Source: Candidatus Omnitrophota bacterium (lineage in GTDB: Bacteria > Omnitrophota > Gorgyraeia > Aquiviventales > Aquiviventaceae). Taken from it: 64,000 nt of DNA. The position numbers and the translations under genes were made by a program. The DNA lies in assembly GCA_023247255.1 (NCBI GenBank), contig JAHFGV010000004.1, positions 20,023 through 84,022 of the forward strand. The letters run 5' to 3'. Positions 1,909 through 61,853 of this stretch are shown here, piece after piece (positions within the stretch are counted from its first letter, which is position 1; each line of letters starts with the position of its first letter). The notes under the pieces were generated by a model that made no database searches, had not been told where the DNA came from, and worked only from the letters and a program-made list of their open reading frames with translations.

Positions 1909-2714
1909 CTATGGCGCTACCTCCGGTCTTCCTCCCAGTACTTGATCCTGTGATTGGGATTGCGGGAATTGCGATGAACGCCCCTCCGAAAAAGTCGTGT
2001 GCTTTATCCGTCGATGCCAGGTGAAGAAGAACTGGCCGGCCAAGAGTCCCATAAAGATCACGATCAGGAAAATCACCAGCCATGTCGTTGTGGTTGAAGG
2101 GGCATCTGACTTGAGTGGAGATTCCTCAAGCATTTCCGGAATCGGCGGCCCGCCTGTGAATGACAAGAGCTTTTCCAGCCGCGTGAGATCATCTTTGATC
2201 TGTTCCAACATCAACAAGTTGCGTCGATAAGCACCGATCCGCTGCTTGCGACTGATCGTCTCATCTACTTGTATCTGCTCAATATTACTCAGCCGATTTA
2301 AGATGGATTCTCCCAGTGACTTAGCAGAATCAGCGTATTCGCTCTGTCCCAGACGTTTCAATATAAGCTCGGTCTGTGTTCGCAACCCAAGAATCTCCTC
2401 TGAAGGGATGAACCACACATCGCGCACAATAACCTCGAATACGCGCATTTGCTTGGGAGCCAACGTCACTTCTGGCTTGTGGACGTAGTAAAGGGATTTG
2501 TCCGTATCGAACTCCACCTCCATATCCCCTTGCTCTAAAATATCCGTTGGTTTGACCTCTTGGGGAAGATCGATACGGATAGGGACGGTCCGGTTTTTAT
2601 CGGAAGAGGGATTAACCGCAACAATACGTAGGGTCATCGGCTCTCGCTCAGCAACTATAGCCGCCTCGATGGAAGAAGTCATGAAGCCACAACCGATCAG
2701 CATCATTACCATGG
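1909..2714 (-). CDS. hypothetical lipoprotein/membrane protein with coiled-coil region and C-terminal TM helix
   Basis: The ORF is open to 3192, but the upstream 480 nt is a repeat array. The likely start is MVMMLIGCGF (lipobox-like LIGC) at 2712-2714. It has a coiled-coil middle and a C-terminal hydrophobic helix (WLVIFLIVIFMGLLAGQFFF). No homolog recognised. Confidence 0.45.
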
Positions 2715-2734
2715 CGATTTTGTGGAGCCCCACA

Positions 2735-3150
2735 GGATGAGCCTGTCGCACTGATAACTTCTCCCCTCCCAAGGAATCATGAGAAACTGCCTTGGAATTT
2801 TCGATTCTCGATTTTGGATTTTCGATTGGAAGCCCCCTGTTCAATCGAAAATCGACAATCGTCAATCGACAATCCCACGGGATGAGCCTGTGGCACTGAT
2901 AACTTCTCCCCTGCCAAGGAATCATGAAACTGCCTGGGAATTTTCGATTCTCGATTTTGGATTTTCGATTGGAAGCCCCCTGTTCAATCGAAAATCGACA
3001 ATCGTCAATCGACAATCCCACGGGATGAGCCTGTCGTACCGGCAAGTCCGCCCCGATCGGGGCGACATCCCGCCAACCCAATCGGCTCTGCACTAGCGTG
3101 TCGCCCACAGCCTTCGGCCGTGGCGCAATGGCAGGGTTGATAAATTCCGC
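2735..3150. repeat. Composite repeat array: two ~145-bp units (hairpin CCACAGGATGAGCCTGTGG plus family-B palindrome) followed by one full family-A element (3015-3150)
   Basis: The unit cacaggatgagcctgtggcactgataacttctcccctgccaaggaatcatgaaactgcctgggaattttcgattctcgattttggattttcgattggaagccccctgttcaatcgaaaatcgacaatcgtcaatcgacaatc occurs twice, near-identical. It is followed by cacgggatgagcctgtcgtaccggcaagtccgccccgatcggggcgacatcc...ccttcggccgtggcgcaatggcagggttga. Confidence 0.85.
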
Positions 3151-3160
3151 GAAGCGAAAG

Positions 3161-6100
3161 TTATTGATAGATGACGTGAACCACCGGATCATCGATTCCT
3201 CCCAGCTTGTTCTCCATCAAAAGCTGCATCACCTCGGTTGCTCCTTGAACAGTATCTGTCTTCTTACGAATGTTTTGGATGGAGTCGGATTTCTCCAAAC
3301 CTTTCTCCACACCCATCTCCATGAGTTGGCTAAAATCATAGCCTTCATCCCCCGCCAAGGCACTGATCCGCTCGGCGACGTCGTTAATCGCCTGCTTCAT
3401 GCGGACGTTCGAGCCTTCTTCGGCCACTGCCTTGGGGATACGATCGATCCGTTGTTTGAGCACCTCGAGCTTTTGACCAAGTTGTCCATCACCTCCCAGG
3501 CTTCCCTGTAGATTCTTCACCGCTGTGTAGGTATCCTGGATCACTCCTCGTGAGGCACTGGAAGCAGCAATCTGTCCTGAGAGATCATCGAGAGAAGTCC
3601 CCGTGAACTGGAAAGAGCCTTGATCGAAGAACCCGGTGAGCGACTCGGTGACTAACGCGACCACCGACTTGCCTATCGGCACCAAGCTTCCGACCGATTC
3701 CGGAACGAGGTACTCGAAAGTAGTCACCTTCCCATCGCTGCCTACCTTCTTCATGGGGGTCTTGGCGGTCAGGACGACGCCATCCGCCGACAGTTCGATA
3801 AGCGGTGTCCAGTTATCCGCTCCAGCCAACTGAATGCTGATTGTCTCTCCAATCTTTGCACTGGTTTTCATCAGGAGTCGCCCCTCAGGACGTTTAACGA
3901 AGATCGTCCCCACCTGGAAACTCCCAATCGCATCATCCTTCACGGTAACGGTAATCGTTTTTCCAGGTTGGAACTTCGTTGCGGTTATCACCTGCTCCGC
4001 CAAGCCCCACTCGGAACTCCACTCGAACAGGTTCTGTGCACCGGAAATAGGCTGCATAGCGACTTCAGAAACCACCGCTATCTTGTCAAAGTTCTCAATG
4101 GTGATTTTGGGAGACAAACTGAGCCCCTGAGTATCGCGTGGGCCACGCCACCGAATGATAAGAGGAAGGCCTGTGTTGATTTCTTGTGGCGTTAGGAGCT
4201 TGGCACTTTGTTGATTGGCGACCGTCCTTAAATCGTTGGCTGTCGCCTGGCTTTGATTCGCAGCGCTGATGAGGGTATTGGAAGCCGTCTGGCTGTTTTT
4301 GGCCGCAGTATCCAGCGTGGATATCGATGTGCTGATGGAATGGGTGAAAGTGTCGAGGGTCCCTTGGATATCGGTACGCACCTGGGACAAGGGAACATCC
4401 AGATTTTTATTCACCTCATGTTTCACGTCTTGCAATTTCTGCTCCACATTAATGGTCAGCGTCCGCGGGGTTTTAAACACCCCTCCGGTTGCAATATTGA
4501 TCGTTGTGACTACGCTGTAAACCTTTCCTGCCGTGAGGGAGGTCGGACTCCAGGTGAAGTTGTACTGCGGACTGGAGTAGAAACCCAGGGCATTCGGAGG
4601 GCCATTAGCAACGAATGATTGGATAAGGGTCGCGCCATCGTAGATGTCCACTTGACAGAGCACCGGGCCGGTCACCGTTGAGCCGTCGCGACGAAGCGTG
4701 GAAGTCACGGTAAGAGAGTCGGCAACTGCAGCAATAGGTGGATTAAGATTCGGCAGTGCTTGGACCGCAGGCACGTAAGCAAATTCCGTCACCGCCTCCC
4801 AGATATGCACCACTTGCGTTTCCATGAACACATCCAAGGGCGCCGTTTCCGGATAGTCTCGGTCGACCACGAAGTTAAGTGTCTGATCTCCATAGGACAC
4901 ACGGCTGAACTTAGCCGACCAGGAACCATATTGAAGCGGTTTGTCCTTGATGATCGAGGACAACCCGGACTCAGTCCAAGTGTAGGCAGGCGGTTGCGTC
5001 GAGCCAGGCTGGCTAGGCGTACCGGCACTGACCGTTAACTGATCCAGGTGGTTGTTGGTCAGAAGATCTCGAACGCGGAACGAAACCTTGTACAAATCAA
5101 TTTTAAAGTCGGCATCCGACTGATCCGACACCGTTACATCAGCGGTATTCACCACACGCACACGGGAAGTCATCGAGACGGTATTCGGCACAAGCCAATT
5201 GTAACTTCCAGTGTTCGTCAGCAAAGCCACGATCACGTTGCCTGCAGGATAGGTGGCACCACCGTCGGTCGAATACTCAAGTTTTACGGTAGGCAGGGTG
5301 CCGGCTGTCGTCCATGAAATCGTACGTATTTCATTCACTACCCAGCGCTCGAGCCCATTCGGCGTGACAATGTTGAGGCGTCCCTGGATCTTGAAATCCG
5401 CATTGGAAACATCAGAAACATTGGCATCGTTGACATCTTCAATACGGACCCTGACAGCCGAAGAAATGCTATCCGGGACCATCCAGGCATAGTTGAAGGT
5501 ACCGCTGGAGCCCACCCCATTGGGAGCCGAATTCGCGATTACGTCGGAATACGTGCTTCCGCTGTTAGTCGAGTAGGTCAGTTTGACGTTCGGAATCGTA
5601 CCACCCCAGCTCCAGGCAATATTTCGGCTCTCACCGACACTCCAAAGCTCTCCACCGTTGGGTGCGCTGATCGTAAAGTTACCCTGGATATTAAAGCTCG
5701 CATCGGAGGCGTCGAACACCGTGGCATCACTCACATCCTCAACTTTGACTCGTGCCATCGTGGTGGGTGCATCTGCCACCGTCCAGGGATAGAAGGTCGG
5801 ATTTGCAGGAGTCGATGCGACGATGACGTTCGGATAGGTCGTGCCTGCGTCCGTTGAGTAGGTGATCTTCACGTTTGCAATCGACCCGAGCCTCAGCCAA
5901 CTGATGTCTCGCAATTGGCCTATCGGGAAGTTTTCGCCGCCATTGGGATTCGTGATGGTGAGGCTGCCCTGAATCTTAAAGTTCCCGTCCGAAGCGTCGT
6001 TGGCGTCGGAATCAGTCGAGGACGACACCCGGATACGCACTTGTGTGGAGATGGCGTCTTCCACCGTCCAGGTGTACGCGCCTGTGTTTTGGACCACGCC

Positions 6101-9100
6101 GTCATTTAGGGTCTGATAGTTTTCTTGAATGGGTTGGTATGCGGTCCCACCGTTAGTGGAAAGTTCCAACTTCACTAAGGATACGGTACCTGTATTCGTC
6201 CAGGCAATAGTCCTGGACTGAGCCACCGTCCAGATTTCGGCACCGTTGGGCGCGGTCAGGGTAAAACCGGCCTTGATCTTGAAGTCCGCATTCGAGATAT
6301 CGTTGGCTGTCGCATCGACAGGATCACTCAAACGCACACGGCCCTGGGCGGTAATCGTATCTGGAATCGTCCAGGCAAAGGTACCATTGTTAGGAGTCAG
6401 ACCAGCGATTGTCGTCCATGTGCCGCCGGAATTGGTGGAATACTCAATCTTGGCATTGGATACCGAACCGGTCTTAGCCCATGTAATGTTCTGCACACTT
6501 CCTACCACCCATTGCTCGGTCCCGTTAGGAGCAGTCACCGTGAAGTCTCCAGTAATGCGGAAATCGGCATTGGAGTCGTCCAAAGCTCCAATATCATTCG
6601 GATCGGACACCCGCACCCGAACTGTGTTTGAGATGGCATCTGGAACCGTCCACCCGTAGCTGCCGATACTGGGGGCGCTAGCGTTGATGGTCTGCAAGTC
6701 GGCGTTGAAGCCATCGCGGGAGTACTGGAGCTTGACATTCGGAATCGTGCCCACGATTCCCCAGGTGATGTTCTGAACCTGCCCCACCCGCCACTGCTCG
6801 GCACCGTTCGGTGAGGTCAAGGTGAAGATTACCCGTATTCGGAAGTCGCCATCCGAGGTGTCGAAGGCCTCGGCATCGGTTGTCTGCGATACACGCACCC
6901 TCACGCTGCCGGTCACATTGTCCGGTACGGTCCATCCGTAACTGCCGGTGTTGCTGGTTGAGCTTGTAATCAGGTTCGGGAAACTCGAGCCACTGTCTGT
7001 AGAATAGTCGATCTTCACGAAACTAACCGTACCGTTCGTCAGCCATGTGATTGTCCGCGCGCTGCCTACTGCCCACACTTCACCGCCGTTGGGCGCGGTC
7101 ACTGTAAAACCTGCTTGGATCTTAAAGATGACATCGGAGGCGTCATTGACGGTGGCGTCGTTCGTATCGCTGACCTTGACCAGACAGTTGGTTGAAATAT
7201 TGTCAGGGATAGCCCAGGCGAAGCTACCCGTATTGGATGTGGATGCGGTGATGGGGGCGTAGAGGCCGCCGCCATTCGTTGAAAATTCCAGTTTAACGAA
7301 CGGAATGGATCCGTTTCGATCCCATGTAACCGTGCGAACCGAGCCGACGGTCCATTTCTCCCCGCCGTTGGGGGCCGTGATCCGCAGGAAACCTTGAATC
7401 TTGAAATTAGTGTTTGAGGCGTCGCTAGCCGTGGTATCGTTCACATCCGATACCTTGAGGCGCGCGGCTGTCGTAATGGCGTCTGGGATCGTCCAGGCGT
7501 ACGTGCCAATATTCGCTATCGAAGATGCAACGACGCTCGGGTAGGTTGCCCCACCATCCGTAGAATATTCAAGCTTAACGTTCGCCACAGTCCCTGCACT
7601 GATCCAGGTGATGTTCTGTACACTGCCCACCGTCCAGGCTTCGCCTCCGTTGGGGGCGGTGACTGTGAAACCGGCCCGGATCTTGAAGTTGCCGTTGGAG
7701 GTGTCAAAGGCATCAACGGTATCGGTGACATCCGACACACGGATTCTCACCGTCGCTGAAATCGCATCGGGAACCGTCCACGCAAAGGTCCCTGTGTTGG
7801 GCGCGGAGGTGGCGATCCCGTTGGGATACGTGGTGCCGCCATTCGTCGAATACTCAAGCTTGACGTTGGCCACCGTCCCCGCAGTCGTCCAAGTAATACC
7901 CTGACTCACTCCAACCACCAACACCTCGCCTCCGTCCGGTGCTGTCATTGCGAAGCTGGCCTTGACTTTGAAGTCCGCATCCGAGGCGTCGAACGTACCG
8001 GCATCGGCCGCATTGGATACGCGAAGGCGCATAGTCGTGGTGATTGCGTTCGGAATCGTCCAGTTGTAGCTGCCCGTATTTGACGAAGCGGCCGTGATGA
8101 CGTTGGGATAGCTAGAACCCCCGTCCGTCGAGTACTCGAGCCTGACGTTGGGTATCGTCCCAAAGGTCGACCATAGGATGGATTGTGTCGTACCGACGGT
8201 CCATTTCTCCCCACCGTTGGGAGCCGTCAGGTTGAAGCTACCACGAATCGTGAAGCTGGCGTTTGACTCGTCATAGACCGTCGCATCCGTCACGTCGGTA
8301 ACCTTTACCTTCACCGTGGTCGATATCGCATCCGGAATGGTCCATGCAAAGGGCGTTCCAGTCGTCGCGTTGAGCGACGTGGCAATGAGGCTGCCAACCG
8401 GATAGGTCGTGCCACCGTCTGTTGAGTATTCGAGTTTAACATTGGCGATCGAACCGGCTTTGGTCCAGCTAATGTTCTGGTTGGATTCAACGGTCCAAAT
8501 CTCTCCCCCGTTGGGCGAGCTCAAGGTGAGGGACCCCTTAATCTTGAAGTTGGCGTTGGACTCGTCATAGGCATCCGGATCCAGCACATCTTCAACCTTG
8601 ACCCGCAACGTCGTTCCGATCGCATCTGGAATCGTCCAGGCATAGGACCCCGTGTTTGTCGTCGATGCGCTGATCGCGTTGGGATACGTCGTGCCACCAT
8701 TGACAGAGTAAGAGAGTTTCACATTGGCAACGTTGCCCACCGTTGTCCAGGTAATGTTGCGGGTTTCCCCAACGACCCAGACTTCCCCACCGTTGGGGGA
8801 ACTGAGCACGAACCCCCCCATGATCTTGAAGTTAGCGTTGGAGGCGTCAAACACAGTGGAATCCGATACATCGGTGATCCGGACTCGAACCTGTGTGCTC
8901 GTGGTGGTTCCCAAGACCCACGCGTAGCTGAGGGCACTGGCAGGGGTAGTCGCCACGATCAAGTTAGGATAGGTTGTTCCACCGTCGGTTGAGTATTCCA
9001 GCTTAGCGTTGACCATCGATCCGGTCTTGGTCCAGGTAATCGATTGTGTGGAACCGGCCGGCCACTTTTCTCCCCCGTTAGGCGATAGGAGCGTAAAAGA

Positions 9101-12100
9101 ACCGGCGATCTTGAAATTGCCGTTTGATGCGTCGAACACCGTAGAATCCGACGTATCGGTAATCTTGACTTTCACCGTGGAGGACATGTTGTCGGGAGTC
9201 GTCCAGGCAAAGCTGAGTGCCGAAGCGCTGACTGAGGAAGTAATCGCGCTCGGATAGCTCACCCCACCATCGGTGGAGTAGTCCAAACGTGCCGTGGCGA
9301 TTGAACCCGTCTTCGTCCAGGTGATGTTCTGGGTCGCACCAACGATCCAAACCTCCCCGCCGTCCGGCGCGGTGAGGGTGAAGGAACCGGCGATCTTAAA
9401 GTTCCCATTCGATGTGTCATTTACGGTTGCATCCGTCAGATGAGTGATTTTCACTCTAACCGTCGATGAAAGGGTGTCCGGAATCGACCAGACGTAACTG
9501 AGCGCAGCGGCTGGACTCGAGAGTGTAATGACATTCGGGTATGTCGATCCGCCGTCGGTGGAGTACTCAAGCTTCACAGTGACAATGGTACCGGTCTTCG
9601 CCCAGGTAATGTTCTGGGAGGAGCCGACGATCCATGTCTCGCCACCGTTGGGGGCATTGAGCGTCAAGGATGCCTTGATCGTAAAGTTGGCATCTGAAAC
9701 ATCCACCACAGTCGCATCGTTCTCATCGCTGATTTTGACCTTCAGGCTGGTGTTAATAGCATCAGGGATCGTCCAGGCATAGCTCAGCGGCGCCGCAGGT
9801 GCCGATGCAGTGATCAGATTCAAATAGGTCGTCCCACCATCCGTTGAATATTCGAGCTTCACGTTCGCAAAGGAACCCGTTCGCGTCCACGTAATGTTCC
9901 GGGAGGCACCGACGATCCAGACTTCAGCGCCATTGGGTGAGGTGAGGGTCACCGACCCCTTGATCTTGAAATTGGCGTCCGAAACATCTGTCACAGCTGA
10001 GTCACCCGTATCCGTGATCTTCACCCTGACCCCTGTTGAAAGGGCGTCCGGCACGATCCACGCGTAGCTCAGCGTCCCGGCCGATGTGGAAGCCGTGATG
10101 AGACTGGGATAGGTCGTGCCTCCATCGGTCGAATAGCGCAACTCCACGTTCGGAAAGGATCCTGTCCGCATCCAAGTGATAGCGCGACTCTCCCCCACCA
10201 CCCAGACCTCGCTACCGTTTGGTTCACTCAGAGTCACGGAACCCCGGATGTTGAAGTTCGCGTTCGACTCATCGTACACGCTGGAATCCGCTGTATTCGT
10301 TACCTTGATCTTGGCCTGCGTCGTTGGCGTATCGGGAATCACCCACGCGTAGGGAGTCCCCGTCGTTGCTGAAACCGACGCCACGATCAAATTCGGATAG
10401 CTCGTACCCCCATTGGTGGAATATTCGAGTTTCACGTTGGCGATCGAGCCGGTCCTCGTCCAGGTGATGTTCTGCGTCGTCGCGATGAGCCATGCCTCCG
10501 CCCCATTGGCAGCGGTGACGGTCAGGCTACCTGCGATCTTGAAGTTGGTGTTCGAGATATCAAACACAGAGGAGTCGCTCACATCGGTCACCTTGACGCG
10601 GGCGGTGGTTGTGATCGCGTCGGGAATCGTCCAGCTATAGCTGCCGGCCGATGCAGAAGTGGAGGCCAGGATGACATCCGGATAGCTGACGCCACCGTCG
10701 CTTGAGTATTCCAACTTCACATTGGCAATCGAACCGACCTTGGACCAAGTGATTGGCTGGCTTGCCCCAACAATCCACGTTTCGCCGCCATTCGGGGCAT
10801 TGAGTGTCAGCGAACCCTTAATGGCAAAGTAAGCGTTGGAGACAGCGCTCACCGTAGGATCGCTTACGTTGCTCAAGCGGACTTTCACCGTATTGCTAAT
10901 AGCGTCAGGAATCGTCCATGCGTAAGCAGACGGCGTGGACGGCACCGAGGCGGTAATCAGGAAGGTCTGCAGTTCATCGGCAAAACCGTTCTTCGAATAC
11001 TCGAGCTTCACGTTCGGAATGGTCCCAGTCTTTGTCCAGGTGATGTTCTGGGTATCAGCCACGACCCATATCTCACCACCATTCGGCGCCGTGACGGTGA
11101 GGGAACCCTTGATACCTAAGTTGGCATTAGAATCATCGAAAACACTCGTGTCACCCGTGTCGGTGATGCGAACCTTTACGGTGTTTGAAATATCATCTGG
11201 AATCGTCCATGTGTAACTCAGGGTAGCGGCAGCGGTGGAAGCAATGATGACTTTTCCCGGATCCGGCCAGGTGATACCACCGTCAGTCGAATACTGCAGC
11301 TTCACATTTAAGATCGAGCCAAATTTCGTCCAGGTGATGTTATAGGAGGAGCCGACGATCCATACTTCACCCCCATTGGGTGCTGTAATCGTCAACAGAC
11401 CCTGGATCTTGAAGTTCGCGTTGGATTCATCAAAGACCGTGGAATCCGACACATCACTCACCCGCACCTTCACCGTTGTGGCTGGGGCATCCGGAATGGT
11501 CCAGGCATAGGGGGTACCGCTCGTTGCAAAGACTGAGGCGATAATCAAATTCGGGTAGGTGGCGCCGCCATCGGTTGAGTATTCCAGCTTCACGTTGGCA
11601 ATAGAGCCCATCTTTGACCAGGTGACGTTCTGAGTCGTTGAAATGGGCCAGGCTTCACCGCCGTTGGGCGAAATCAACAACAAGGAGCCGCGGATCTTGA
11701 AGTTACCGTTTGACACATCGAACGCATTGGCATCCGACGCATCGCTGATACGAACCTTGACTGTAGTCGAGATCGCATCGGGCACGGTCCAGGCGTAGGT
11801 GCCGGTGTTTGAAGTCGAGGCAATAATGAGATTCGGGTAGGTAGCGCCGCCATCCGTCGAGTATTCGAGCTTAACGTTCACCACGGAGCCCGCGGTCGTC
11901 CAGGTGATGTTGCGACTTTCCCCGACCGCCCATACCTCCCCGCCGTTCGGTGAGGTCAGGACAAAACCACCCATAACTTTGAAGTCAGCGTTGGAAGTAT
12001 CGTAAACCGTCGAGTCCGAGGCATCCGTAACCTTCAGCCGTACCGTTGCAGAGATCGCGTCGGGAATCGTCCACGCGTAGATACCGGTGCCGGCTCCCGT

Positions 12101-15100
12101 AGAAGCCGTGATGAGATTCGGATAGCTGGTCCCTCCATTCGTCGAATACTCAAGTTTCACGTTCGTGATCGATCCGACTTTAGTCCAACTCACGTTCTGT
12201 GAAGTGCCCACGGCCCAGGCCTCGCTGCCGTTCGGGGCGATGAGAGTCAGCGAACCGACGATCTTGAAATTCGCATCCGACGCATCGTTCACCGTCGTAT
12301 CAGCGTTGCTGGTGACATTGACCCGCAGTTGAGTCCCGATCGCATCGGGAATGGTCCAAGCATAAGGGGTACCGGTCACGGCATCTGCAGAAGCGGAAAT
12401 AACCGTGGGATAGGTGCTGCCGCCATCCGTCGAGTATTCGAGCTTCACCGTCGCAAACGTGCCCTGCTTCGTCCAGGTAATGTTCTGGCTGGTGCCTACG
12501 ATCCAGACTTCCCCGCCGTTGGGGCTGGTGAGGGCAATTTGACCTTTGATCTCGAAGTTCGCGTTGGAGGCATCGTTGACTGTAGCATCCCCGGTATGGG
12601 TGATCTTTACGCGCAGCTGGGTACCTATCGCATCGGGAACCGACCAGGTATAGCTGCCGCTCGTCGCGCTCGTTGAGGAAGCAATGATGTTGGGGTAGGT
12701 CGTGCCGCCATTCGTTGAGTACTCGAGTTTGACCGTCGCGATGGTGCCGGTCTTCGTCCAGGTGATGTTGCGACTCTCGCCAACCTTCCAGACCTCGACG
12801 CCATTCGGAGAGGTCACTGTGAGTGAGCCTTTAATCTCAAAGTGAGCGTTGGAGATATCCACTACCGTGATGTCTGCAGCATCGCTGGCCCGGACCTTGA
12901 GCGTTGTGCCGATGGCATCGGGAACCGTCCAGGCAAAGTTCAAGGGGCTGGCTGGGGCGGAGGCGCTGATTAAGAAAGTCTGGAGCTCATCGGAAAAACC
13001 GTTCGTCGAGTACTCCAACTTCACGTTGGCAAACGAACCGGTTCGCGTCCATGCGATGTTCTGGCTCGCACCCACGATCCACGTCTCACCCCCATTGGGG
13101 GCGCTTACCGTAATCGAGCCTCGGATTTTGAAATTGGCATCAGAATCATCGAAAACCGATGCGTCGGCGGCATCGCTCACCCGAACCCGCAGCTGTGTTC
13201 CGATCACATCGGGAATGGTCCATGAATACTGGCCGTTGTCCGCACCGACAGGTGGATCCGTATTCGCGCTCGTCGAAGCCGTGATAAGATTGCCAGCGGG
13301 CCATGTGGCCCCGCCATCCGTCGAGTACTGCAGTTTCACATTCGTAATCGCTCCAAAGACATTCCAGGTGACGTTCTGGGTCGCCCCAACGACCCAAACC
13401 TCACTACCATTCGGGGCCGTCAGTGTCACACTCCCTTTAATCGAGAGATTGGCGTTGGAAAGATCGCTGACCGTTGCGTCGGAGGCATCAGAGACCCGAA
13501 GTTTCACCGTAGCCGATGGGGTGTTCGGAATCGTCCAGGCGTAGAGCCCGTTGTTGTCAACCGGCGGAGGATCAGCCGGTGCAGAGGCGGTGATGACGTA
13601 GGTCTGGAGCTCATCGGAAAAACCATTCGTCGAGTATTCGAGCTTGACGTTGGGCAGCGAGCCGGTCCGGGTCCAGGTGATGTTTTGCACGGTGTTGATC
13701 TGCCATCCCTCGCCACCATTGGGGGCGGTCAACAGGAGGCTTCCACGAATCTTGAAGTTGACGTCCGAGGTATCGAAAGCATCCGTATCTGCTGCGTCGC
13801 TCACTTTCACTCGCACGGTCGTTGAGATCGCATCCGCCACCGTCCAGGAGTAGGATCCGCTGTTGGAGGCCGAGGCCGTGATAACATTCGGGTAGGTGCT
13901 GCCGCCGTCGGCGGAGTATTCCAATTTCACATTGGCTGCGGTTCCAACAGTCGTCCAAGTAATGTTCTGGGCGCTGCCAACGGTCAAGACCTCCCCGCCG
14001 TTGGGGGCAGTGAGGGTAAGACCCGCCTTGATCTTGAAGTTCGCGTCCGATACATCTGAGACATCGCTTGGGAAGTCCACATCGGATACCTTTACCTTAA
14101 CGGTGGCGCTCGGGGTGTTGGGGATAGTCCAAGCATAGCTGAGCGATGAAGCCACTGTGGTTGCCACAATCAGGTTCGGGTAGGTCGTCCCGCCGTCGGT
14201 CGAGTATTCGAGTTTGGCGTTGGCGATGGATCCGATACGCGTCCAGGTGACGTTCTGGGAATTTCCTACCGTCCACTTCTCGCCACCGTTTGGAGCAGTC
14301 AGGGTCAGCACACCGACAATCTTGAAGACCGCGTTCGACTCATCCTGCACTGTGGCATCGCTTGTGTCACTCACCCGAACCTTGGCCGTCGCCGTAATCG
14401 CATCCGGCAGAGTCCAGGCGTAGGTACCGGTCGCGGCATCTGTCGATGCAGTGATCAGATTTGGATAGGTGGATCCGCTGTTCGTAGAGTACTCAAGCTT
14501 AACGTTGGTGATGGAACCGGTCCTTGTCCAGGTGACAGCGCGGCTGCTGTTAACCGTCCAGAGTTCCGCGCCATTGGGTGCGGTAAGCGTCAAGGCCCCT
14601 TTAATCGTAAAGTTGGTATTGGATACGTCGTTCACGGTAGAGTCGCTGGCATCAGACACACGAACCTTCAATTGCGCGCCGATGGCGTCTGCGATGGTCC
14701 ATGCGTAGCTCAGCGGTGCTGCCGGTGTCGATGCGACGATGGTAAACGTCTGGAGCTCATCGGCGAAACCGTTCTTTGAATACTCCAGTTTCACGTTAGC
14801 GATCGAACCCTGCTTCGTCCAAGTAACGTTCTGAGAGGAACCGACGATCCAGGTTTCCCCACCGTTGGGAGCAGTGAGCGTTACAGAACCCTTGATCGTG
14901 AAGTTCGCGTTGGTGTCATCGGTCACCGTTACGTCATCCACATTTGTGATCCTCACCCGAAGCTGTGTGCCGATGGAATCGGGAATCGTCCAGGCGAAGC
15001 TTAAGCTCGATCCGGCCGTGGAAGACACGATCACATTCGGATAGGTGGTGCCGCCGTTTGTCGAATACTCGAGCTTAACGTTTGGAATGGTCCCAGTCTT

Positions 15101-18100
15101 GGCCCAGGTGATGTTCCGACTATCGTTGACGATCCACGTCTCACCGCCGTTGGGTGAACCCAACGTCAGTGTTCCCTTAATGGTGAAATTTCCGTTGGAG
15201 GCATCCGTCACGGTGTTGTCGTTGACGTCGGTAATCCGGACGCGCAGATCGGTATCGATTTCATCCGGAAGGGTCCAGGCATAGCTGAGATTCGCGGCAG
15301 GCGTTGATGCGGTGATCGCAATGGGAAACGTGGCACCGCCATCCTTTGAGAGATCAAGCTTCGCGTTGGCGATCGATCCCCCTCGTGTCCACGTAATGTT
15401 TCGGCTCTCGCTGACTTTCCAGACCTCGCCACCGTCCGGTGCTTGGATGAAAAGCGATCCCTTGATGCTGAAATTCGCATCCGATGGGTCCGTTACATTC
15501 GTGTCGTCGAGCTGGGTGATTCGGACACGTCCCTGCGTGGTCGGGTTATCCGGAACGGTCCAAGCATAACTCGTATCCGTAGCAGGAACCGTGTTGCTGA
15601 TCAGATTGCCCACGGGATAGGTCGTACCACCATCGGTCGAATATTCGAGCTTGAGATTCCCAGTCAGTGTTCCCGTCTTCACCCAGGTGATATTCTGTGT
15701 CGCGTTGATCGGCCAGCCTTCATTACCGTTAGGTGCAGTGACGGTAATCGAGCCACGAATCGTGAAGTCGGCATCCGAGGTGTCGTTTAGGTCGAGGACA
15801 TCGGGTGTGGTGTCGTAGGTAACCTTCACGCGCCGCGTGGTCCCGATAGAATCCGGAATGGTCCAGGGATAGCTCAGATTTCCACCCGATGTGGAGGCGA
15901 CGATAAGATTCGTATAGCTCACACCACTGTTGGTTGAGTACTCCAACTTAACGTTCGGTAGCGTTCCCGTCTTGGTCCAGGTAATGTTTTGGGTCGTCCC
16001 CACAACCCAGGACTGGCCTCCGTTAGGAGCCGTCAAAGCAAGGGAACCCCTGATGGTGAAATCTGCATCGGAGGCATCGATGACCGAAGCATCTGAGGCA
16101 TCACTGATCCGGATCCGGCACTGGGCGCTGATGCCATCGGCCACTATCCAGGTGTAGCTACCGGCGCCCGCAGGCGTTGAGGAGACGATGACATTGCCGG
16201 CAGGCCATGTTGAGCCGCTGTCCGTCGAGTATTCCAGTTTTGCGTTGGCGATAGCCCCCAGGGTTGTCCAGGTAATGTTCTGGGGATCTGCGACTACCCA
16301 AGTCTGGCCGCCGTTGGGCGCTGTGATGGTCAGTTTGCCCTTTAGCCGAAAGTTATTCTCTGACGCATTTGCCGCAGCCTTACCTGCCGTGACCGGTGTG
16401 ATTCTCACCCGGGCTGTCGTCGATAGGGGCGCATTAGACGGAATCGTCCAGGCATACTGCCCGTTATTCCCACCAGTCGGTGGATCGGTATCCGATGGGG
16501 TAGAGGCAATGATGAGGTTCGGGTAAGTAGATCCTCCATCCGTCGAGTACTCCAGTTTGACGGCCCCTACCGTACCGGTGAGGTTCCAGGTAATGTTCTG
16601 GCTCGTCCCAAGCTCCCAAACCTCTCCGCCATCAGGAAAGGTGATGTTGAGAGATCCTTGTATCGTGAAGTTGGCGTCCGATTCATCCGTAACAGAAGTC
16701 TCGTTGAGGTATACGATCTTAACCCGCAGATCATTGTCGATCGCATCGGGGACGGTCCATGCGTAGCTGCCAGCGGTAACCGCCACGGAATTAGTAATCA
16801 TGTTGCCTGGATCGGGGTAGGTCGCCCCGCCATCCGTCGAGTAAAGCAACTTGACGTTGCCACTCAAGGTGCCGGTCTTCGTCCAGGTAATGTTCTGCGT
16901 ATCTCCGACTACCCAGCTCTGACTCCCATTGGGTGCCGTGAGGGTTAACGTACCCTTCACCGTGAAGCCGGTGTCCGAATCATCGTAGACCGTGCTGTCG
17001 GCCGCATTCTCCAAGCGCACTTTAACATTCGTTCCAATGATGTCGGGAACAGGGTTCCAGTTGTATGAACCCACATTCGAGATCGACGCTCCACCTGCAA
17101 TCGGGTTGCTGAAAGTAGCGCCATCGGTGGCGTAGTAGAGCTTTACGCCGGAGACGGTCCCATTCGTGTTCCAGGTAATGTTCCGGGTCGTGTCCCCAAC
17201 AAACCAGATAAGATTCGTATTGGGCTGCGTCACGGTGAGCTGGCCTTTGATCGTGAAGTTGGCATCCGAGGTATCGAAGACCGTGGTGTCAGTGACCAGC
17301 GTCACCTTAACGCGAAGCTGAGTCTCGATAGCATCTGGGATCGGGTTCCAGTTGTATGACAGCGCGCTGGCAGCCGTGGTGCTGTTGATCAGGGTGTCGT
17401 AACTTGTACCACCGTTGGTCGAGTAACGCAGCTCGACATTGCCGGCCATCGAACCCGTGGTTCCCACTCGCGTCCACGTAATGTTGCGGTTCGTCTCGCC
17501 GACCTTCCAGACCTCGCCGTTGTTGGGTGCAACGAGGGTCAGCGTTCCCTTGATGGAAAAGTTGGCATCTGATTGATCCTCAACACTCGTATCGGTCACC
17601 AACCGCACGCGCACCCGGATATCGCTGTCGATGTCATCCGGGGTGGCCCAGTTGTACGGCGTACCGGAGACTGGATCCAAACCCGTGGCAATCAGTTTGC
17701 CTGCTGGAAACGTCGCCCCGCCGTCCGTTGAGTAGTGCAGCTCTACGTTGCCAATCGAACCGGTCTTGGTCCAGCTGACCGGACAGGATTGGCCGACGGT
17801 GCAGGTGCCACCGCCATTGGGCGCTCCCAAGACCACGGTCCCCTTGATGGAAAAGTTGGAGTCTGAGGCGTCATCGGCGACGTTAACGGTATCTGAAGGA
17901 ATAACTCTGACTTTCACCGTGTTGTTGATCCCGCCGGTGACATCAGGAATCGGAGACCAGCTGTAGCTCCCGCTTGCCCCTCCGATCGGAGTCGAGGCCA
18001 CAATGACATTCGGGTAGGTGCTGCCTCCATCCGTCGAATAGCGAATTTCCACTGTGCCAGAGACCGTGCCGTTGTTGTTCCAGGTGATGTTGCGCGAGCT

Positions 18101-21426: not shown

Positions 21427-22857
21427 TCAGGTCTCGCTGGTTACCTGACTTGCGTCGCGTCCGGGCTGGCTGGTCCCTACGAAACGAAAGGTGATGGCCG
21501 GTTGTCCCATCGCCTGACGGGTTAGAATACCGTGCATCGTTCGGCCATCCCATTCCCCTCGCCAGCAGATGATCTCGCCACGAGGACCGGTCTGCATCGT
21601 TTCCCAGAGTATCGTTCCATCGGACTGAACGCTCAACGAATAGTTTGAACTCTCAAAACCCTGATCGCTGAGGGACGTAGAGGTAACCTTTCCCGCTTCG
21701 AATTGGAGACGATCGATCTGCGGCGCCACGTCACCGGTAGCATCCAGAGGACGAATCTGTACCTGCCAGATCGTTCCGGCTAATCGGGATGGCTGGATAA
21801 AATTCGCCAATTGAGTCGTTGGACCCGCGGGGAGTGCATCCACAGGGTCCAGAATCGGTAGCGTCTGTTCCGTGGCGAGTGAGCGCAGCGCCTGCCGCAT
21901 AGTCGCGAGATTTTTAGCATAGAGCCCAGCGGCGCAGAGTAATAGGATCGCAACCGACAGGCTTGCAGTCAAAAACAAGGAGGGCCCTGGATGCGGATAA
22001 CTATCTTGTACGGATCGAGACATCAGACGAGGATCGTCGGACCTCGACGCCAAAGCCGGTTCCGGTCCAGAGTAAACCGGTGCGCGATCCTCACGGTGCG
22101 TTTCATCAGCAGGACGATAGGCGTGTTTCGACCGCTCACGAACCGACGTCACGAACGCCGCTGAGCCGATAATCCCATGGGATGTCAATTCCTGAACGAA
22201 CCGATCCCATGCAGAAATCGGCACCGAGTGCAGGTAATCCTCATAGCTTACCCCAGGCTGTTCGCGGCGGATTAGCTCGAGAACCTCGCTCGATTCAACC
22301 GACAGCAACGGTCTGACCGTAGGGGAGGGTAAGGTAGAAATAGAAAGAAGATAACTCGGGTAGCTACTCCACGGGTAAGCGTATGGATCGTCCGTTAGGC
22401 CGAGCCGTCGTGGTTGGACATGGAGATAACCAGTGATTCGAAGCAGCGAAGGCGCCTTTTCCAGAATCGTCGATTTGAATCGTTCGCGAAACACATGGCC
22501 CGTGCGACCGTAGCGACGGTTAACGTACTTGGTGTAGCGCGAATTCACCCCATGCATGATATCGGAGACGGTTGCCCGATCCGTCAGCTCAAGACACAAC
22601 TCGATGGAATCTGGCAGGAGAACATACCCAAAGACCTTGAAACCGGAGGACTGGCGGTACTGCTCCAGCAATCCAAGATAATGGGTGTAGTCTTGGTCAT
22701 CCCGAAACAGACTCATCCCTTCGGCAGCCCTAGCAGCGACGTAGTACAGTGCCCCTTCGACATGGATGCGTAGAGGTCGTGGCATCGTATTACTGCGCCC
22801 TCCAACCGGTTGGTGCCTGGCACTGGGTGGGTGCCTGGCACCCGGTGCCAGGCACAA
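21427..22857 (-). CDS. Y1/HUH transposase-like (RAYT/IS200-like) domain protein with degenerate active site, fused to a TM helix and a periplasmic domain
   Basis: The N-terminal ~130 aa fit the IS200/RAYT fold pattern (LRIHVEGALYYVAARA...FGYVLLPDSIELCLEL...MHGVNSRYTKYVNRRYGRTGHVFRERFKSTIL). The HUH position reads SIE and the GRYK Tyr is Phe (ERFKS). The TM helix is LFLTASLSVAILLLCAAGLYA, and the C-terminal domain is shared with the 229-aa secreted protein. The probable start is MPRPLRIHVEG at ~22785. Confidence 0.6.
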   Translation of the reverse strand: MCLAPGARHPPSARHQPVGGRSNTMPRPLRIHVEGALYYVAARAAEGMSLFRDDQDYTHYLGLLEQYRQSSGFKVFGYVLLPDSIELCLELTDRATVSDIMHGVNSRYTKYVNRRYGRTGHVFRERFKSTILEKAPSLLRITGYLHVQPRRLGLTDDPYAYPWSSYPSYLLSISTLPSPTVRPLLSVESSEVLELIRREQPGVSYEDYLHSVPISAWDRFVQELTSHGIIGSAAFVTSVRERSKHAYRPADETHREDRAPVYSGPEPALASRSDDPRLMSRSVQDSYPHPGPSLFLTASLSVAILLLCAAGLYAKNLATMRQALRSLATEQTLPILDPVDALPAGPTTQLANFIQPSRLAGTIWQVQIRPLDATGDVAPQIDRLQFEAGKVTSTSLSDQGFESSNYSLSVQSDGTILWETMQTGPRGEIICWRGEWDGRTMHGILTRQAMGQPAITFRFVGTSQPGRDASQVTSET

Positions 22858-23271: not shown

Positions 23272-25977
23272 CTATCGGGGAACTGGCCGTACAAAGATAG
23301 TATCTCCATGCTCTAACGAAAGTGGCTCCTGGACCTCTCCCTGAATATAGGCAATCGCCAATCCTGAGCTGTCGATCTCGGTAACCTCGACTTCAAGGTT
23401 AGATTGACGGCCGGTATCCAGAAGGAGTCGCTCACCTTCTTGGACGTCTTCGAGTCCTCTGAGGATTACAAATCCCAACTCTGTGCTGATTCCAATGACT
23501 TCGATGACAGAGCTGCCTTTAGTGGGAGGGCTTGACTGTTTATCCATCGCTCTTTTATCTATGGAAGACTGTAATGGAACGGACCCGGTTTTATGGGCAG
23601 CCGCAGATTCATACTGGGTGAGCTTGGCCTCTCGTTTCGCAATCTGCTCTTTAAGCTGCGTGATGTAGCGTTCCTGCGAAGCAATCTGTTCGAGGGCACT
23701 TGAAAGTTGCGAGTCAGACTCGTGGAGCCCAACGGGATGAGCCTGTGGCACCGGTAAGTCCGCTTCGAGTGAGGCGACATCTCGCCCACCCAGTCGGCCC
23801 TGCACTGCCGTGTCGGCCATGGCTTTCGGCCTTGGCGCAACGGCGGGATTAACGTACTGCACCGAGTGCGATTCGAACAAACGCTTATCAAAACCAGCTA
23901 CCGTCGTCGCATGTATATTTTGACTGGCACGTAGCAGCTCAATCTCTTTGGCCAACTCGCGCTCACGCGTTCGTGACTGTGCCCATTGGCGTTGGAGTTG
24001 CTCCAGTTGCTCTGTAAGATGCGAACGGTCCGCCTGAAAACGCAAGAGATCTTGTTCACGGCTCATCAAAGCGTCAGTAGATTCTTTGAGTTGGCTTTCC
24101 AATTCGGCAACCCGTTGTTGAGATCGACTCAGGCTTTCTTTCAACTGCAAATGAGACTTGCGACTCGGCTCAACATCTTCAGAAAACTTTGCATACTTGT
24201 CCTCTGCAACCGTCAATTGTCGGGTAAGCACCTCTACGCGTTCTTGATACTGATGCTGAGTCGTTTCCAGCTGACTGACTTGTTTCGTCCAATGATCACG
24301 AAGAGAATCCACTCCTTTGATGAGCTGAGTCTGCGCTTGTTGCGCCTCTGTCAATTGTGCGGTACGCGCGTGAAGCATTTGTTGCAGTTGCTGATCGTGG
24401 GTCTTCAACGTATCCCTCTCGGATTTAAGCGCTGTGGCGATCTGACTCAACTGGTTGTGCTCCTGCTGACCATCCGCAACCACCCTCTGAAGCTCCGCAA
24501 CCTTCTGCCGCATCCCTTGAAGCTCATCGGTCAGAGTTTGCATACGGACTTTTTCTACCTTTGCATCTTCCATCACCCGGGCTAATTCCCTCTGCGACTG
24601 ATCCAGTGCCTGATTGAGTCGTTGCCCTGTTGCGCGGATTTGTTGAAGATCAACAGCGTCTTTTCTTGCGTTTTCGAGCCGAACCTGGGCATCCTTGAGT
24701 GCCGTCGTCAGCTCTTGATTCGATTGTTCAAAACTACTGGCTGTCTGAGTCTGCGCCTTGAGTTGTTCACTGAGTGTTGCATTCGCCTGCTGGAGTTCGA
24801 GCAGCTCATCCATCGCCTGCTGCCATTGTTCTTGTAGAGACGTCAATGCCGCTCGCGCAGTCACCGACTCTTCCTGCCGGTAAGTCAACTCCGTCCGTAA
24901 CTCCTCCCGACGGCCTTCCCATTGAGCCAGCTGCTGGCTGCTTGCGTCTAATTTACTCTGGGCGGATTCTAGGGCTTCCGTTAATTGAACGTTAGTCTGC
25001 TGCACAGTTTCCGATTCCTTCTTCAACTTCCCATTAACTTCTCGCAGACCTCCCAAATCCTGCTGCCGCTCGGTGAGTAATGCCTGAAGCTGCGTCAATT
25101 GCTGCTGCGTGTGCTGCTGGCTGTCCTGTAGCATATGAGAATTTTCTTTTTCGGTAAGCAACGCCTGAAGAAGTCGCTGGCGATCCCGTCCTACCTTGAG
25201 TAACTCTTGACCCAACTGTTGGGTCTGTTGGGTTTTACCGGTTAATGCCTCTCGTAATTGCTTGATCTGTTGTTGGTTACCCGAAACCCGTTGCCGCAGT
25301 ACAGTCGCTTCTTTCTCTTGAGTCTCACGTCGAGCCTGGAGTCCTGCGAGTTGGTCATTCAGTTGCCGTAACGCCTCTTGCACCTGGGTCAGCACCTCTG
25401 TTTTCCGAGTCAGTTGTTCGTCTAAAGACGCTTTAGCCTCTTTCACAGTGGCCAGTTCTGCTTGCGCCGCTAGACTCTCCTTGCCCAAACGCGATGATTC
25501 ACTCTGAAGCTCATCGAAACGGGTCTGGAGCTGAGCCATCGCCTCCTGAGCTTGATGCAGCGCTTCCTCCTTGAAGGTCAACGTTTCTTGCAATTGCTGG
25601 CTTACCTCGGCCCGTTCTTTCACGGCACGTTCATAGTCACTTTGGAGCTGGCGCAATCGATCTTGAGACGATGCTGCCTGTTCCTTATATGTGGTCAGAT
25701 CGGTGGTTGCTCGACTGAGATTGGCTTCTGTATTTGACAAAGCCTGCGCCAACTGTTTCCGCTCCTGCTCACTGTCTTCGAGACTCGCGGTAAGCCCTCT
25801 CAAAGCATCATAGACCGACTCTTCGTTCTGGCCCGTGCGTGTGACAGGCTCACCCGAAACAAAGGACATCCAAGACAAACTCCCGATAATCACAAGTCCA
25901 AACAATGTCTTCCGGAACCTTACTTTCATCGGTTGTCCAATTTCATCTTTATTGAGAAATAATAAGGGTTGTTTCAT
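23272..25977 (-). CDS. long coiled-coil envelope protein (901 aa) with N-terminal signal/TM, C-terminal PilP/GspC-like beta domain, and an in-frame family-A element
   Basis: N-terminal hydrophobic segment (LFGLVIIGSLSWMSFVSG) and ~650 aa of heptad-rich Q/E/L/R coiled coil. Residues ~705-745 (NPAVAPRPKAMADTAVQGRLGGRDVASLEADLPVPQAHPVGL) are encoded by the family-A element at 23735-23860. The C-terminal tail is a beta-domain (GFVILRGLEDVQEGERLLLDTG...GDTIFVRP). Confidence 0.7.
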   Translation of the reverse strand: MKQPLLFLNKDEIGQPMKVRFRKTLFGLVIIGSLSWMSFVSGEPVTRTGQNEESVYDALRGLTASLEDSEQERKQLAQALSNTEANLSRATTDLTTYKEQAASSQDRLRQLQSDYERAVKERAEVSQQLQETLTFKEEALHQAQEAMAQLQTRFDELQSESSRLGKESLAAQAELATVKEAKASLDEQLTRKTEVLTQVQEALRQLNDQLAGLQARRETQEKEATVLRQRVSGNQQQIKQLREALTGKTQQTQQLGQELLKVGRDRQRLLQALLTEKENSHMLQDSQQHTQQQLTQLQALLTERQQDLGGLREVNGKLKKESETVQQTNVQLTEALESAQSKLDASSQQLAQWEGRREELRTELTYRQEESVTARAALTSLQEQWQQAMDELLELQQANATLSEQLKAQTQTASSFEQSNQELTTALKDAQVRLENARKDAVDLQQIRATGQRLNQALDQSQRELARVMEDAKVEKVRMQTLTDELQGMRQKVAELQRVVADGQQEHNQLSQIATALKSERDTLKTHDQQLQQMLHARTAQLTEAQQAQTQLIKGVDSLRDHWTKQVSQLETTQHQYQERVEVLTRQLTVAEDKYAKFSEDVEPSRKSHLQLKESLSRSQQRVAELESQLKESTDALMSREQDLLRFQADRSHLTEQLEQLQRQWAQSRTRERELAKEIELLRASQNIHATTVAGFDKRLFESHSVQYVNPAVAPRPKAMADTAVQGRLGGRDVASLEADLPVPQAHPVGLHESDSQLSSALEQIASQERYITQLKEQIAKREAKLTQYESAAAHKTGSVPLQSSIDKRAMDKQSSPPTKGSSVIEVIGISTELGFVILRGLEDVQEGERLLLDTGRQSNLEVEVTEIDSSGLAIAYIQGEVQEPLSLEHGDTIFVRPVPR

Positions 25978-26114: not shown

Positions 26115-26804
26115 CTAGCGACCGAACCATCCCTTGCGTTTCTTGGAAGCTGGTTTTTCCGAGGACGGAGTCGGTGACTGTATCGCTGATGACTGATCTT
26201 GAACCTGCTTTTGAACCGCTGATTTTTCTACGGCGTGCTTTCCTGCTGCCGAATTGCTATTGCTTCGTTGACCGGAAAAAGAAAAATCCTCTGCATTTCC
26301 CTCGAGGGGATGCTTGCTGACTATCCCTCGCATGGCCGAATCATGAAGCTCCCCTCGCCAAAACACGACCCCTTCGTTTTCTTTGGTTTGCATCGTCTCC
26401 CAAACCACCATCCCGTCGTCTCCAATAGTAATCGTATAGTTGGATGATGGATACCCCTCCTTCATCAACCGTTTAGATGAGACTTTGGCAGAATCAAACT
26501 GTATGGTATCTTGTCGAGTCTTGAGTGGCTCGCCAGGGGATATCGCAGTAAGTTCCAATGTCCATTCGGTCCCATTTAATTGAACCCGTATTTCCTCCTC
26601 AGCTGATTGGGGTCTTGCTGAAGTTGTTTCAGTCGTTGCCGAAGCAGGAGAATCTGCGATTGTGTCTGCTACGGAAACAACTGAGCCGGCCGATAGACTT
26701 CCTTGCGGTTTAGCATCCTCCGCACGTACCGTTACGATAGGAAGATGAATTAAGACACTGCTTAAAAGAACCCACACTACAATCTGCATCCTCCGTTGCA
26801 TCAT
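26115..26804 (-). CDS. secreted hypothetical protein (229 aa) with a domain paralogous to the C-terminus of the RAYT-like fusion protein
   Basis: Signal peptide (MQIVVWVLLSSVLIHLPIVTVRA). The block IQFDSAKVSSKRL...SSNYTITIGDDGMVVWETMQTKENEGVVFWRGELHDSAMRGIV aligns to LQFEAGKVTSTSL...SSNYSLSVQSDGTILWETMQTGPRGEIICWRGEWDGRTMHGIL in the 21427..22857 protein. Confidence 0.6.
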   Translation of the reverse strand: MMQRRMQIVVWVLLSSVLIHLPIVTVRAEDAKPQGSLSAGSVVSVADTIADSPASATTETTSARPQSAEEEIRVQLNGTEWTLELTAISPGEPLKTRQDTIQFDSAKVSSKRLMKEGYPSSNYTITIGDDGMVVWETMQTKENEGVVFWRGELHDSAMRGIVSKHPLEGNAEDFSFSGQRSNSNSAAGKHAVEKSAVQKQVQDQSSAIQSPTPSSEKPASKKRKGWFGR

Positions 26805-61649: not shown

Positions 61650-61700
61650 ATCAAGAACCGTAACGAGTAACACGTTACAAGAAACAAGTCACTGTCTGCG

Positions 61701-61850
61701 TGGGCGAGAGAGGAGTTGGCGCCTTCCGCTCGTCACTGCGCTCCTCGCTTCAGGTCGGCCACCCGCCGCTCCTAAGGAATGTCAATCCTCCTATCCGTCG
61801 GATCGACGTTATTCGAAGTCGCGGCTCCTTTCAACTCCTCTCCTTTACGA
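61701..61850. repeat. repeat block downstream of tRNA-Leu: an 18-nt copy of the tRNA-Leu 3' end plus a conserved ~65-nt segment
   Basis: tgggcgagagaggagttg (61701-61718) is identical to the 3' 18 nt of tRNA-Leu. It is followed by gcgccttccgctcgtcactgcgctcctcgcttcaggtcggccacccgccgctcctaaggaat, homologous to the segment after the tRNA-Gly copy. Confidence 0.7.
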
Positions 61851-61853
61851 AAC

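Follow-up and report, generated by a model that had tools for sequence, protein, structure and literature searches.

An array of palindromic repeats inserted in frame behind a conserved overlapping start codon in Omnitrophota, and its probable translation as a leader peptide

Is an array of structured repeats at a gene boundary an untranslated RNA element, or is it read as part of the protein that follows? The question is raised by a 64-kb stretch of a groundwater metagenome contig from Candidatus Omnitrophota (ENA ERZ27276474, k141_1983974, 121.8 kb), hereafter the window, in which the genes around the array all lie on the minus strand: a giant gene upstream and, downstream, a conserved gene of unassigned function whose open reading frame (ORF) continues through the array. 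We propose that the array is a mosaic of dispersed palindromic modules—one family-A element, two units with heptad hairpins, and short hairpins resembling repetitive extragenic palindromic (REP) sequences—inserted in the 5′ coding region of the downstream gene, between its start codon, ATG 3192, and the hydrophobic core of its signal peptide, as 140 codons with no stop. That the array is an insertion, that the insertion keeps phase and that ATG 3192 is the ancestral start are well supported by comparison with related loci; that the array is actually translated and the signal peptide cleaved is what we infer from the same sequences. Ribosomes entering at ATG 3192 and reading through the array are probably, if only just, the main or a substantial mode of expression.

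The features of the locus, in the order in which a ribosome would meet them, are the following.

3161..21043, minus strand: giant gene, 5960 aa; stop TAA at 3163-3161
3161..3210, minus strand: 3′ end of the giant gene, encoding ..KLGGIDDPVVHVIYQ*; C-terminal motif kept in 17/17 orthologous loci examined
3198..3202, minus strand: Shine–Dalgarno (SD) sequence GGAGG, formed by the giant-gene Gly-Gly codons GGA GGx, 5 nt upstream of ATG 3192
3190..3192, minus strand: ATG 3192, conserved and well-supported ancestral start, formed by the giant-gene Asp codon GAT and the G of the next codon; GGAGG-N5, anti-SD pairing −10.2 kcal/mol
3142..3160, minus strand: remnant of the native n-region, ..NFRFAEF, unique sequence absent from other family-A copies
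3141..2722, minus strand: inserted block, 420 nt or 140 codons (codons 18-157), its bounds taken from other element copies and from orthologues
3013-3141, minus strand: family-A element, three consecutive hairpins of which the last is the short hairpin 3018-3036; translated as INPAIAPRPKAVGDTLVQSRLGWRDVAPIGADLPVRQAHPVGL
2874..3016, minus strand: unit 1, 143 nt, with heptad hairpin ~2927-3022, linker and short hairpin 2875-2893
2729..2873, minus strand: unit 2, 145 nt, with heptad hairpin ~2784-2879, linker and short hairpin 2730-2748
2749..2770, minus strand: candidate start GTG 2751 in the last unit, GGGAGGGGAG (2770-2761), N9 and in-frame GTG (2751-2749); anti-SD pairing −10.7 kcal/mol
2722..2728, minus strand: end of the inserted block, last bases ..GGCTCCAC
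2710..2712, minus strand: candidate start ATG 2712, MVMMLIGC.., with no SD sequence; anti-SD pairing −4.7 kcal/mol
2662..2718, minus strand: signal-peptide core IAMVMMLIGCGFM and c-region TSSIEA, cleavage likely after A177
1909..2661, minus strand: mature part of the downstream protein, conserved and of unassigned function, modelled as a beta-sandwich, three helices and a C-terminal transmembrane (TM) helix

The giant gene consists largely of at least ~40 tandem units of ~285 nt (95 aa) with 60–85% nucleotide identity and has only faint Pfam matches (Kre9_KNH and CHB_HEX_C); its last 13 residues are conserved in every relative examined.

The array itself is made up of one 129-nt family-A element and two tandem units of 143 and 145 nt. 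An initial annotation, made from the window alone, had described such a composite, with two units of ~145 bp and one complete family-A element, and everything that it described is present; its length of 480 nt gives way to a block of 420 nt. Tandem Repeats Finder places the repeat at 2729-3036, with a period of 143, 2.1 copies and 95% matches. Each unit carries a heptad hairpin whose imperfect arms, (ATTTTCG)x4.4 / loop / (CAATCGA)x4.7, are 35–39 nt long and 82–83% complementary; the hairpin of unit 1 has a minimum free energy of ~−37 kcal/mol (z ~−4.4), either strand alike. The heptad motif matches 19 times in the window and the short hairpin, a variant of CCACAGG-ATGAG-CCTGTGG, six times with ≤2 mismatches, in both cases against 0 matches expected by chance. 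The particular hairpin that had been quoted for the units, CCACAGGATGAGCCTGTGG, is found in the array only as variants with one or two mismatches (2730, 2875 and 3018), and its exact copies lie at 27895 and 62033. The block is preceded by native n-region sequence (MIRWFTSSINNFRFAEF) and followed by the native core (KIAMVMMLIGCGFMTSSIEA/A), and its end, GTGGAGCCCCAC.., is common also to copies at 62020, 23722 and 27886. Unit 1 and unit 2 fall in different reading frames, with a 2-nt indel between them, and only the observed combination (143 + 145 = 288 nt, or 96 codons) preserves phase.

What the block interrupts is seen in the orthologous loci, whose comparison the initial annotation had suggested. 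Our set comprises 17 loci with DNA, from metagenome-assembled genomes labelled Candidatus Omnitrophota and a few with other labels. Synteny is conserved—giant gene, downstream gene, then ATP synthase epsilon, c, b/delta and alpha—and in all loci the giant gene ends in ..GG[ILV]D[DAE]P[VI].. followed by the stop. From that stop to EREP, the motif with which the conserved mature part begins, the distance is 61–94 nt in repeat-free loci versus 511 nt in the window. The downstream gene starts ~30 nt inside the giant gene in 16/17 loci, usually with GGAGG before the ATG; in the window the overlap from ATG 3192 is 32 nt long, much as had been noted. Because the genes overlap there in relatives, the stretch between them is not a spacer that the array fills, as was first supposed, and the array is an insertion into the n-region of the signal peptide. 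The proteins tell the same story. About 20 of 25 aligned orthologues start with M[IT]R[WS]xTSxxN, the same as the ORF in the window, and reach the hydrophobic core after just 12–16 residues. Homologues are mostly 255–300 aa long, and the part ahead of EREP measures 29–40 aa in most of 120 homologues versus 181 aa in the window protein, where EREP begins at residue 182.

Several lines of evidence bear on whether ribosomes still enter at ATG 3192. First, the overlapping signal is held in place by synonymous choices of the giant gene. The Asp codon behind the ATG is GAT in 16/17 loci, and GAC only in L026, which has a start past the giant-gene stop, although GAC is preferred over GAT in most of these loci's giant genes (for example 12:68, 14:57, 26:78 and 22:59). 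GGAGG is likewise retained in 13/17 loci. It has degenerated into GGCGG or GGCGGC in three loci with a convincing downstream start, all past the stop: L011 (MMKR..), L021 (a new GGAAGGAG-ATG, MRRQG..) and L026 (AAGGAG-ATG). Since non-preferred synonymous codons maintain both SD sequence and ATG, and these degenerate in loci with a downstream start, the overlapping pair is well supported by this synonymous-site evidence as the functional ancestral start. The two genes are probably translationally coupled, and for annotation the true start of the conserved downstream gene would lie concealed within the giant gene. In the window the signal is intact, as GGAGG-AATCG-ATG.

Second, insertions at this site tend to keep the frame. 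Unrelated hairpin or heptad insertions occupy it in 8/17 loci (the window, L005, L006, L007, L020, L021, L022 and L027), and in seven of these eight the frame of the conserved ATG is kept without a stop (binomial p ~0.003 at p0=1/3). Where the ATG exists (16 loci), it is in frame and open in 15, and in the window, L005 and L006 its frame is the only open one; the ORF of 427 aa in the window (1909..3192, minus strand) runs without a stop across the array, as the initial annotation had seen, in the sole open frame of six. A 95%-identical allele, protein P0002 (encoded on a contig of ERZ27297570), has a different array (A+A′, two family-A variants with no heptad units), also in frame. One site that has received many independent insertions, with the frame kept in all but one, is in effect a natural experiment.

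Third, in L005 (protein P0114) and L027 (protein P0007) both n-region and hydrophobic core of the signal peptide come from the arms of the hairpin, and the repeat must be translated in these two loci because the hairpin itself encodes the core. The hairpins lie just past the giant-gene stop (L005 ~4005-4110, L027 ~1520-1615), with one arm reading ..GLGGVRRGNQG.. or ..TEPQKFHRNTE.. and the other ..LILLSLALPCSPLL.. or ..FCASVALLWFCGVV... From their sequences, both are possible cases of repeat-derived signal peptides.

Taken together, these observations point to the following course of events in the window. Ribosomes initiating at ATG 3192 would read through the repeats, because the insertion is an exact codon multiple, free of stops and placed after the ancestral start, and would produce a basic, unstructured leader of 140 residues. 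This leader would remain on the cytoplasmic side and be discarded once signal peptidase cuts after ..IEA; the site would tolerate junk sequence provided that the frame is kept. Consistent with this, residues 1–160 have a net charge of +10 and are modelled without structure, at a predicted local distance difference test (pLDDT) score below 50, ahead of a hydrophobic segment at 159–171 within a modelled helix at 156–173; orthologues have AxA-type cleavage sites immediately before the conserved EREP. The mature part has 231 homologues and pLDDT above 90 for residues ~186–345; it belongs to no Pfam family, and a fold search returned no significant match. The predicted mature N terminus begins at A178 (AIVAER.., or AIVAEREPMTLR if the R-E-P site is missed), and the array would yield the tryptic peptides DVAPIGADLPVR, FSIEQGASNR, LTIVDFR, GLPIENPK and AVSHDSLGGEK. 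Of the two readings offered initially, the one in which the protein includes the element-encoded peptide is therefore the better supported, given the conserved ATG 3192 with its GGAGG, the exact 140-codon insertion and the retention of frame in relatives. The label 'lipoprotein' for the downstream gene is doubtful, because the Cys of LIGC, present in the window protein and in P0002, is missing or non-canonical in the majority of orthologues; these have AxA-type ends.

The start may instead have moved downstream, most likely to GTG 2751 (MRQAHPVGLHKIAMVMMLIGC..) or else to ATG 2712, in which case the repeats would be untranslated intercistronic RNA and their open frame incidental; we consider this possible but rather unlikely. 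The version with ATG 2712, which had been proposed with the repeats as 5′ untranslated region, is the weaker: its anti-SD pairing is −4.7 versus −10.2 kcal/mol for ATG 3192, there is no SD sequence and no positive charge ahead of the hydrophobic core, and LIGC would place its Cys at residue 8, which is too short. GTG 2751 has more in its favour. Its GGGAGGGGAG-N9-GTG shows the strongest anti-SD pairing of the region, and its product, MRQAHPVGLHKIAMVMMLIGCGF.., would combine charged residues (R, K) in the n-region with a hydrophobic core and the LIGC and IEA/A motifs. A hydrophobic core directly after ..PVGLH is seen in unrelated secreted proteins as well, P0134 among them, and the loci L021, L011 and L026 are proof that genes of this family can start downstream. 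The state of the old signal argues the other way: GGAGG has decayed wherever the start moved but is intact in the window, where the frame is open, and ribosomes should still initiate at 3192 because GGAGG-N5-ATG is intact and the frame is open. L021, the sole moved-start locus with an insertion, has a broken frame as well, together with a new SD sequence and ATG, a charged n-region beside the core and a decayed old SD sequence, and none of these marks of a relocated start is present in the window. GTG 2751 also adjoins the stem of a short hairpin, and the retention of frame in 7/8 independent insertions would be unexpected if the upstream ATG were irrelevant. From its sequence, the element-borne GTG 2751 is a credible second start, and initiation there may run in parallel to that at ATG 3192.

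Several points nevertheless weigh against translation from ATG 3192 through the array. The SD sequence of GTG 2751 is equally good (−10.7 kcal/mol) and a textbook signal peptide is predicted behind it, and function need not lie with the long form. An extension of 140 aa ahead of a signal peptide is unusually long, and the stability of the array RNA (−189 kcal/mol, z = −5.9) could impede ribosomes. L021 survives a broken frame once a new start has evolved. The open frame at this one locus, taken alone, is weak evidence, because each module lacks stops in two of the three sense frames; the chance of openness together with the correct phase is ~0.1, which also counts in favour of a relocated start. 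Finally, units of 143 and 145 nt are near the assembler k-mer (k141), and their number is possibly mis-assembled; to set against this worry, an identical 427-aa product is on record for three contigs.

A further alternative gives the array its main role at the RNA level, as a 3′ structure of the 18-kb giant-gene message—an exonuclease block, attenuator or insulator—that would separate giant-gene expression from that of the downstream gene and the ATP-synthase operon, with coding compatibility as a side condition. We think this somewhat less probable still than a moved start. The array RNA folds strongly whichever strand is taken (−189 and −171 kcal/mol; z = −5.9 and −6.6), the eight loci with insertions have independently gained different hairpins within a few bases of the giant-gene stop, and other heptad hairpins of the window are intergenic, flanking two tRNA genes. 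REP sequences and bacterial interspersed mosaic elements (BIMEs) of Escherichia coli stabilize mRNA upstream of them and, close to stop codons, can modulate translation, which would fit such a role. The particulars of the array fit it less well. On the minus strand between 2400 and 3500 we found no canonical intrinsic terminator, that is, a G+C-rich hairpin followed by a T-tract, nor any promoter-like site on that strand downstream of the array; the idea that the array terminates the giant gene, raised in the initial annotation, is unsupported, as no hairpin is followed by a T-tract. A search of Rfam, at the gathering threshold and at E≤1, gave no family, the only hit being a sub-threshold plant microRNA hairpin (29 versus 135 bits). 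Family-A elements fold barely better than shuffled sequences (z −1 to −2.3); in their three hairpins 90% of cells pair, among only six copies, and shuffles equal that in 65/500 runs. The folding of the heptad hairpin has no strand preference. The same elements also stand in the middle of genes (mqnC, an MFS transporter gene and a 901-aa ORF), where a terminator would harm. A REP-like role in mRNA stability, attenuation or coupling is possible and not exclusive of translation; the 3′ boundary of the giant gene appears as a hotspot of structured repeats, with a possible effect on mRNA fate.

If the repeats are translated, they might be selected as functional protein modules. The family-A peptide does recur: when the array peptide was compared, without a profile, to 1.84 billion representative proteins, 31 matched, in which NPAIAPRP.AVG..GGRDVAPIG..PVP.A.PVGLH takes N-terminal, internal or C-terminal positions in unrelated proteins. 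Selection at the amino-acid level is nonetheless very improbable, and a codon-position test led us to reject it: among five family-A DNA copies, differences are spread evenly over codon positions (95:108:125), with no third-position excess. The conserved peptide blocks PRP.AVG, VAPIGAD and PQAHPVG are translations of hairpin stems, and a stem change from CAG/CCT to CGG/CCC turns PQAHP into PRALP; the region is modelled as disordered. A 16-sequence family-A profile run in a word-indexed protein search found only six short ORFs, and a scan of Joint Genome Institute (JGI) metagenomes for CCACAGGCTCATCCYGTGGG gave four chance matches only, in unrelated genes such as FtsH, with no further copies of the element.

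Copies elsewhere show what the elements do in other genes. The window holds three full family-A copies and one partial copy, with further copies in L024, L017 and L019, and five heptad hairpins, with one more in L024, a contig from the same sample. Those outside the array are as follows.

23725-23853 and 27890-28018 (window), L024:10136-10264, L017 and L019: family-A copies, all in the same frame inside ORFs
61420-61515, 62065-62157 and 62211-62305: heptad hairpins, intergenic, flanking two tRNA genes
34266-34330: degenerate heptad hairpin

The clearest case is mqnC, encoding cyclic dehypoxanthinyl futalosine synthase, in which an in-frame composite of 82 codons (L024 10139-10384), made of family-A, heptad and short-hairpin parts, sits between profile positions ~30 and 31; once it is deleted in silico, TIGR03699 is again matched over its full 1–342 length and the score climbs from 455 to 472 bits. 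The MFS transporter P0156 has two family-A copies in its central loop. The copy at 23725-23853 (minus strand) lies in frame within the coiled-coil ORF of 901 aa (23272..25977), whose coiled-coil character resumes after the element; a search around this copy found no orthologues, just two other element-bearing proteins. In a 388-aa TPR protein (26864-28030, minus strand) family-A begins near codon 6, with a TM helix behind it; the ATG of this protein has GGGAG-N7 ahead of it and shares bases with the TGA of the secretin gene 28027..29712 (ATGA). This layout, a coupled start with an in-frame element and a hydrophobic segment, is the same as that of the array locus. The copies in mqnC, the MFS gene and the 901-aa and 388-aa ORFs share strand and frame.

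Other copies are extragenic. The partial family-A copy at 47119-47218 abuts the start (47100) of a 309-aa ORF (46171..47100, minus strand), from which it is separated by an in-frame TAA directly upstream of the ATG. Three heptad elements (61419-61547, 62061-62189 and 62210-62338) and a short hairpin (62033-62051) flank tRNA-Gly (61578-61649) and tRNA-Leu (61854-61935), and the ORFs 61700..62296 and 62169..62936 (plus strand), which run over heptad elements, are probably spurious. A second heptad-hairpin family (GGTTCAG.. / ..CCCTGAA, ~150 nt) has reverse-complementary copies at 50130-50290 and 60440-60590; the 10 kb between them may be an invertible or mobile block, or the hairpins may simply be two dispersed copies.

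No match to a plasmid was found. The only Y1-like domain in the window (E=9.5e-6), which resembles those of IS200 transposases and REP-associated tyrosine transposases (RAYTs), is in the 476-aa ORF 21427..22857 (minus strand); both its HUH motif (..DSIEL..) and its catalytic Tyr (RERFKS) are gone, and we dropped the RAYT hypothesis on that ground. The domain is fused to a TM segment and to a C-terminal domain shared with ORF 26115..26804 and, by its sequence, looks like a domesticated, inactive transposase domain.

These cases suggest a wider possibility, which we put forward tentatively and regard as doubtful at present: that hairpin repeats behind overlapping starts are routinely translated in Omnitrophota, are filtered for frame by selection and serve as raw material for N-terminal leaders. 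Were this so, one module could bring its own SD sequence and GTG start, and a hairpin arm could become a signal peptide, as seems to be the case in L005/P0114 and L027/P0007. The n-regions of cleaved signal peptides apparently let repeats land without harm, and new leaders may possibly derive from such repeats. Annotated N termini in these genomes are inflated or truncated according to where repeats fall.

Several known kinds of repeat share features with the array. Cyanobacterial short tandemly repeated repetitive (STRR) sequences are heptanucleotide tandem repeats, and the arms of the heptad hairpin are likewise built of tandem 7-nt units; here, however, complementary heptad runs face each other as a ~95-nt hairpin, dispersed as an element of 130–145 nt in a non-cyanobacterial host. 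Miniature transposable elements with inverted repeats (MITEs) and intragenic small mobile sequences of the ERIC/BOX type can form ORF fusions (PMC10969869). The array resembles them as non-autonomous short repeats with long inverted arms (35–39 nt in the heptad hairpin) for which in-frame host fusions are possible. Four family-A copies have no recognizable target-site duplication at their junctions and family-A lacks terminal inverted repeats; neither transposase-related terminal repeats nor a parent insertion sequence were identified.

The closest known kinds are REP/BIME clusters in architecture and Rickettsia palindromic elements (RPEs) in behaviour. Like the REP sequences and BIMEs of E. 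coli, the array combines short imperfect palindromes with other motifs in a variable, strongly folded mosaic placed at a gene 3′ end or between co-transcribed genes, and the short hairpin is, as REP sequences are, a 20–40-nt imperfect palindrome in many copies. REP sequences mobilized by RAYTs typically carry a GTAG/CGTC tag (PMC3733652). The palindromes here have no consistent GTAG/CGTC at their end, their flanks being GTGGAGCCC..CCTGTGGCAC or ..CCTGTCGCAC; several copies are intragenic and in frame (mqnC, the MFS gene and the 901-aa ORF) rather than strictly extragenic, and no intact RAYT was found within the window.

RPEs were reportedly described by Ogata et al. (2000, Science 290:347). 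In a later summary, they are dispersed palindromic repeats of ~100–150 nt that lie inside unrelated coding genes, in frame and stop-free, the extra peptide being tolerated by the host protein (PMC10969869). The Omnitrophota elements behave alike: they are multi-copy dispersed palindromic repeats, in frame inside coding genes, and the added peptide appears tolerated at permissive sites—here the N-terminal region of mqnC, the central loop of the MFS transporter, a coiled coil and signal-peptide n-regions. The likeness is one of behaviour, a relationship in sequence is not expected, and the host belongs to the phylum Omnitrophota and is not an obligate intracellular alpha-proteobacterium. Unlike RPEs, the Omnitrophota elements come as modules that join into arrays, and of four family-A copies seen in frame (three in the window, one on the same-sample contig) two directly follow an overlapping start. 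Translation of the elements is predicted from sequence. They provide a second, well-documented lineage, far from Rickettsia, with palindromic repeats inside coding sequence; if their general translation holds, they would form a lineage-wide, RPE-like system of 'coding repeats' with a modular, BIME-like architecture in a free-living, ultra-small phylum.

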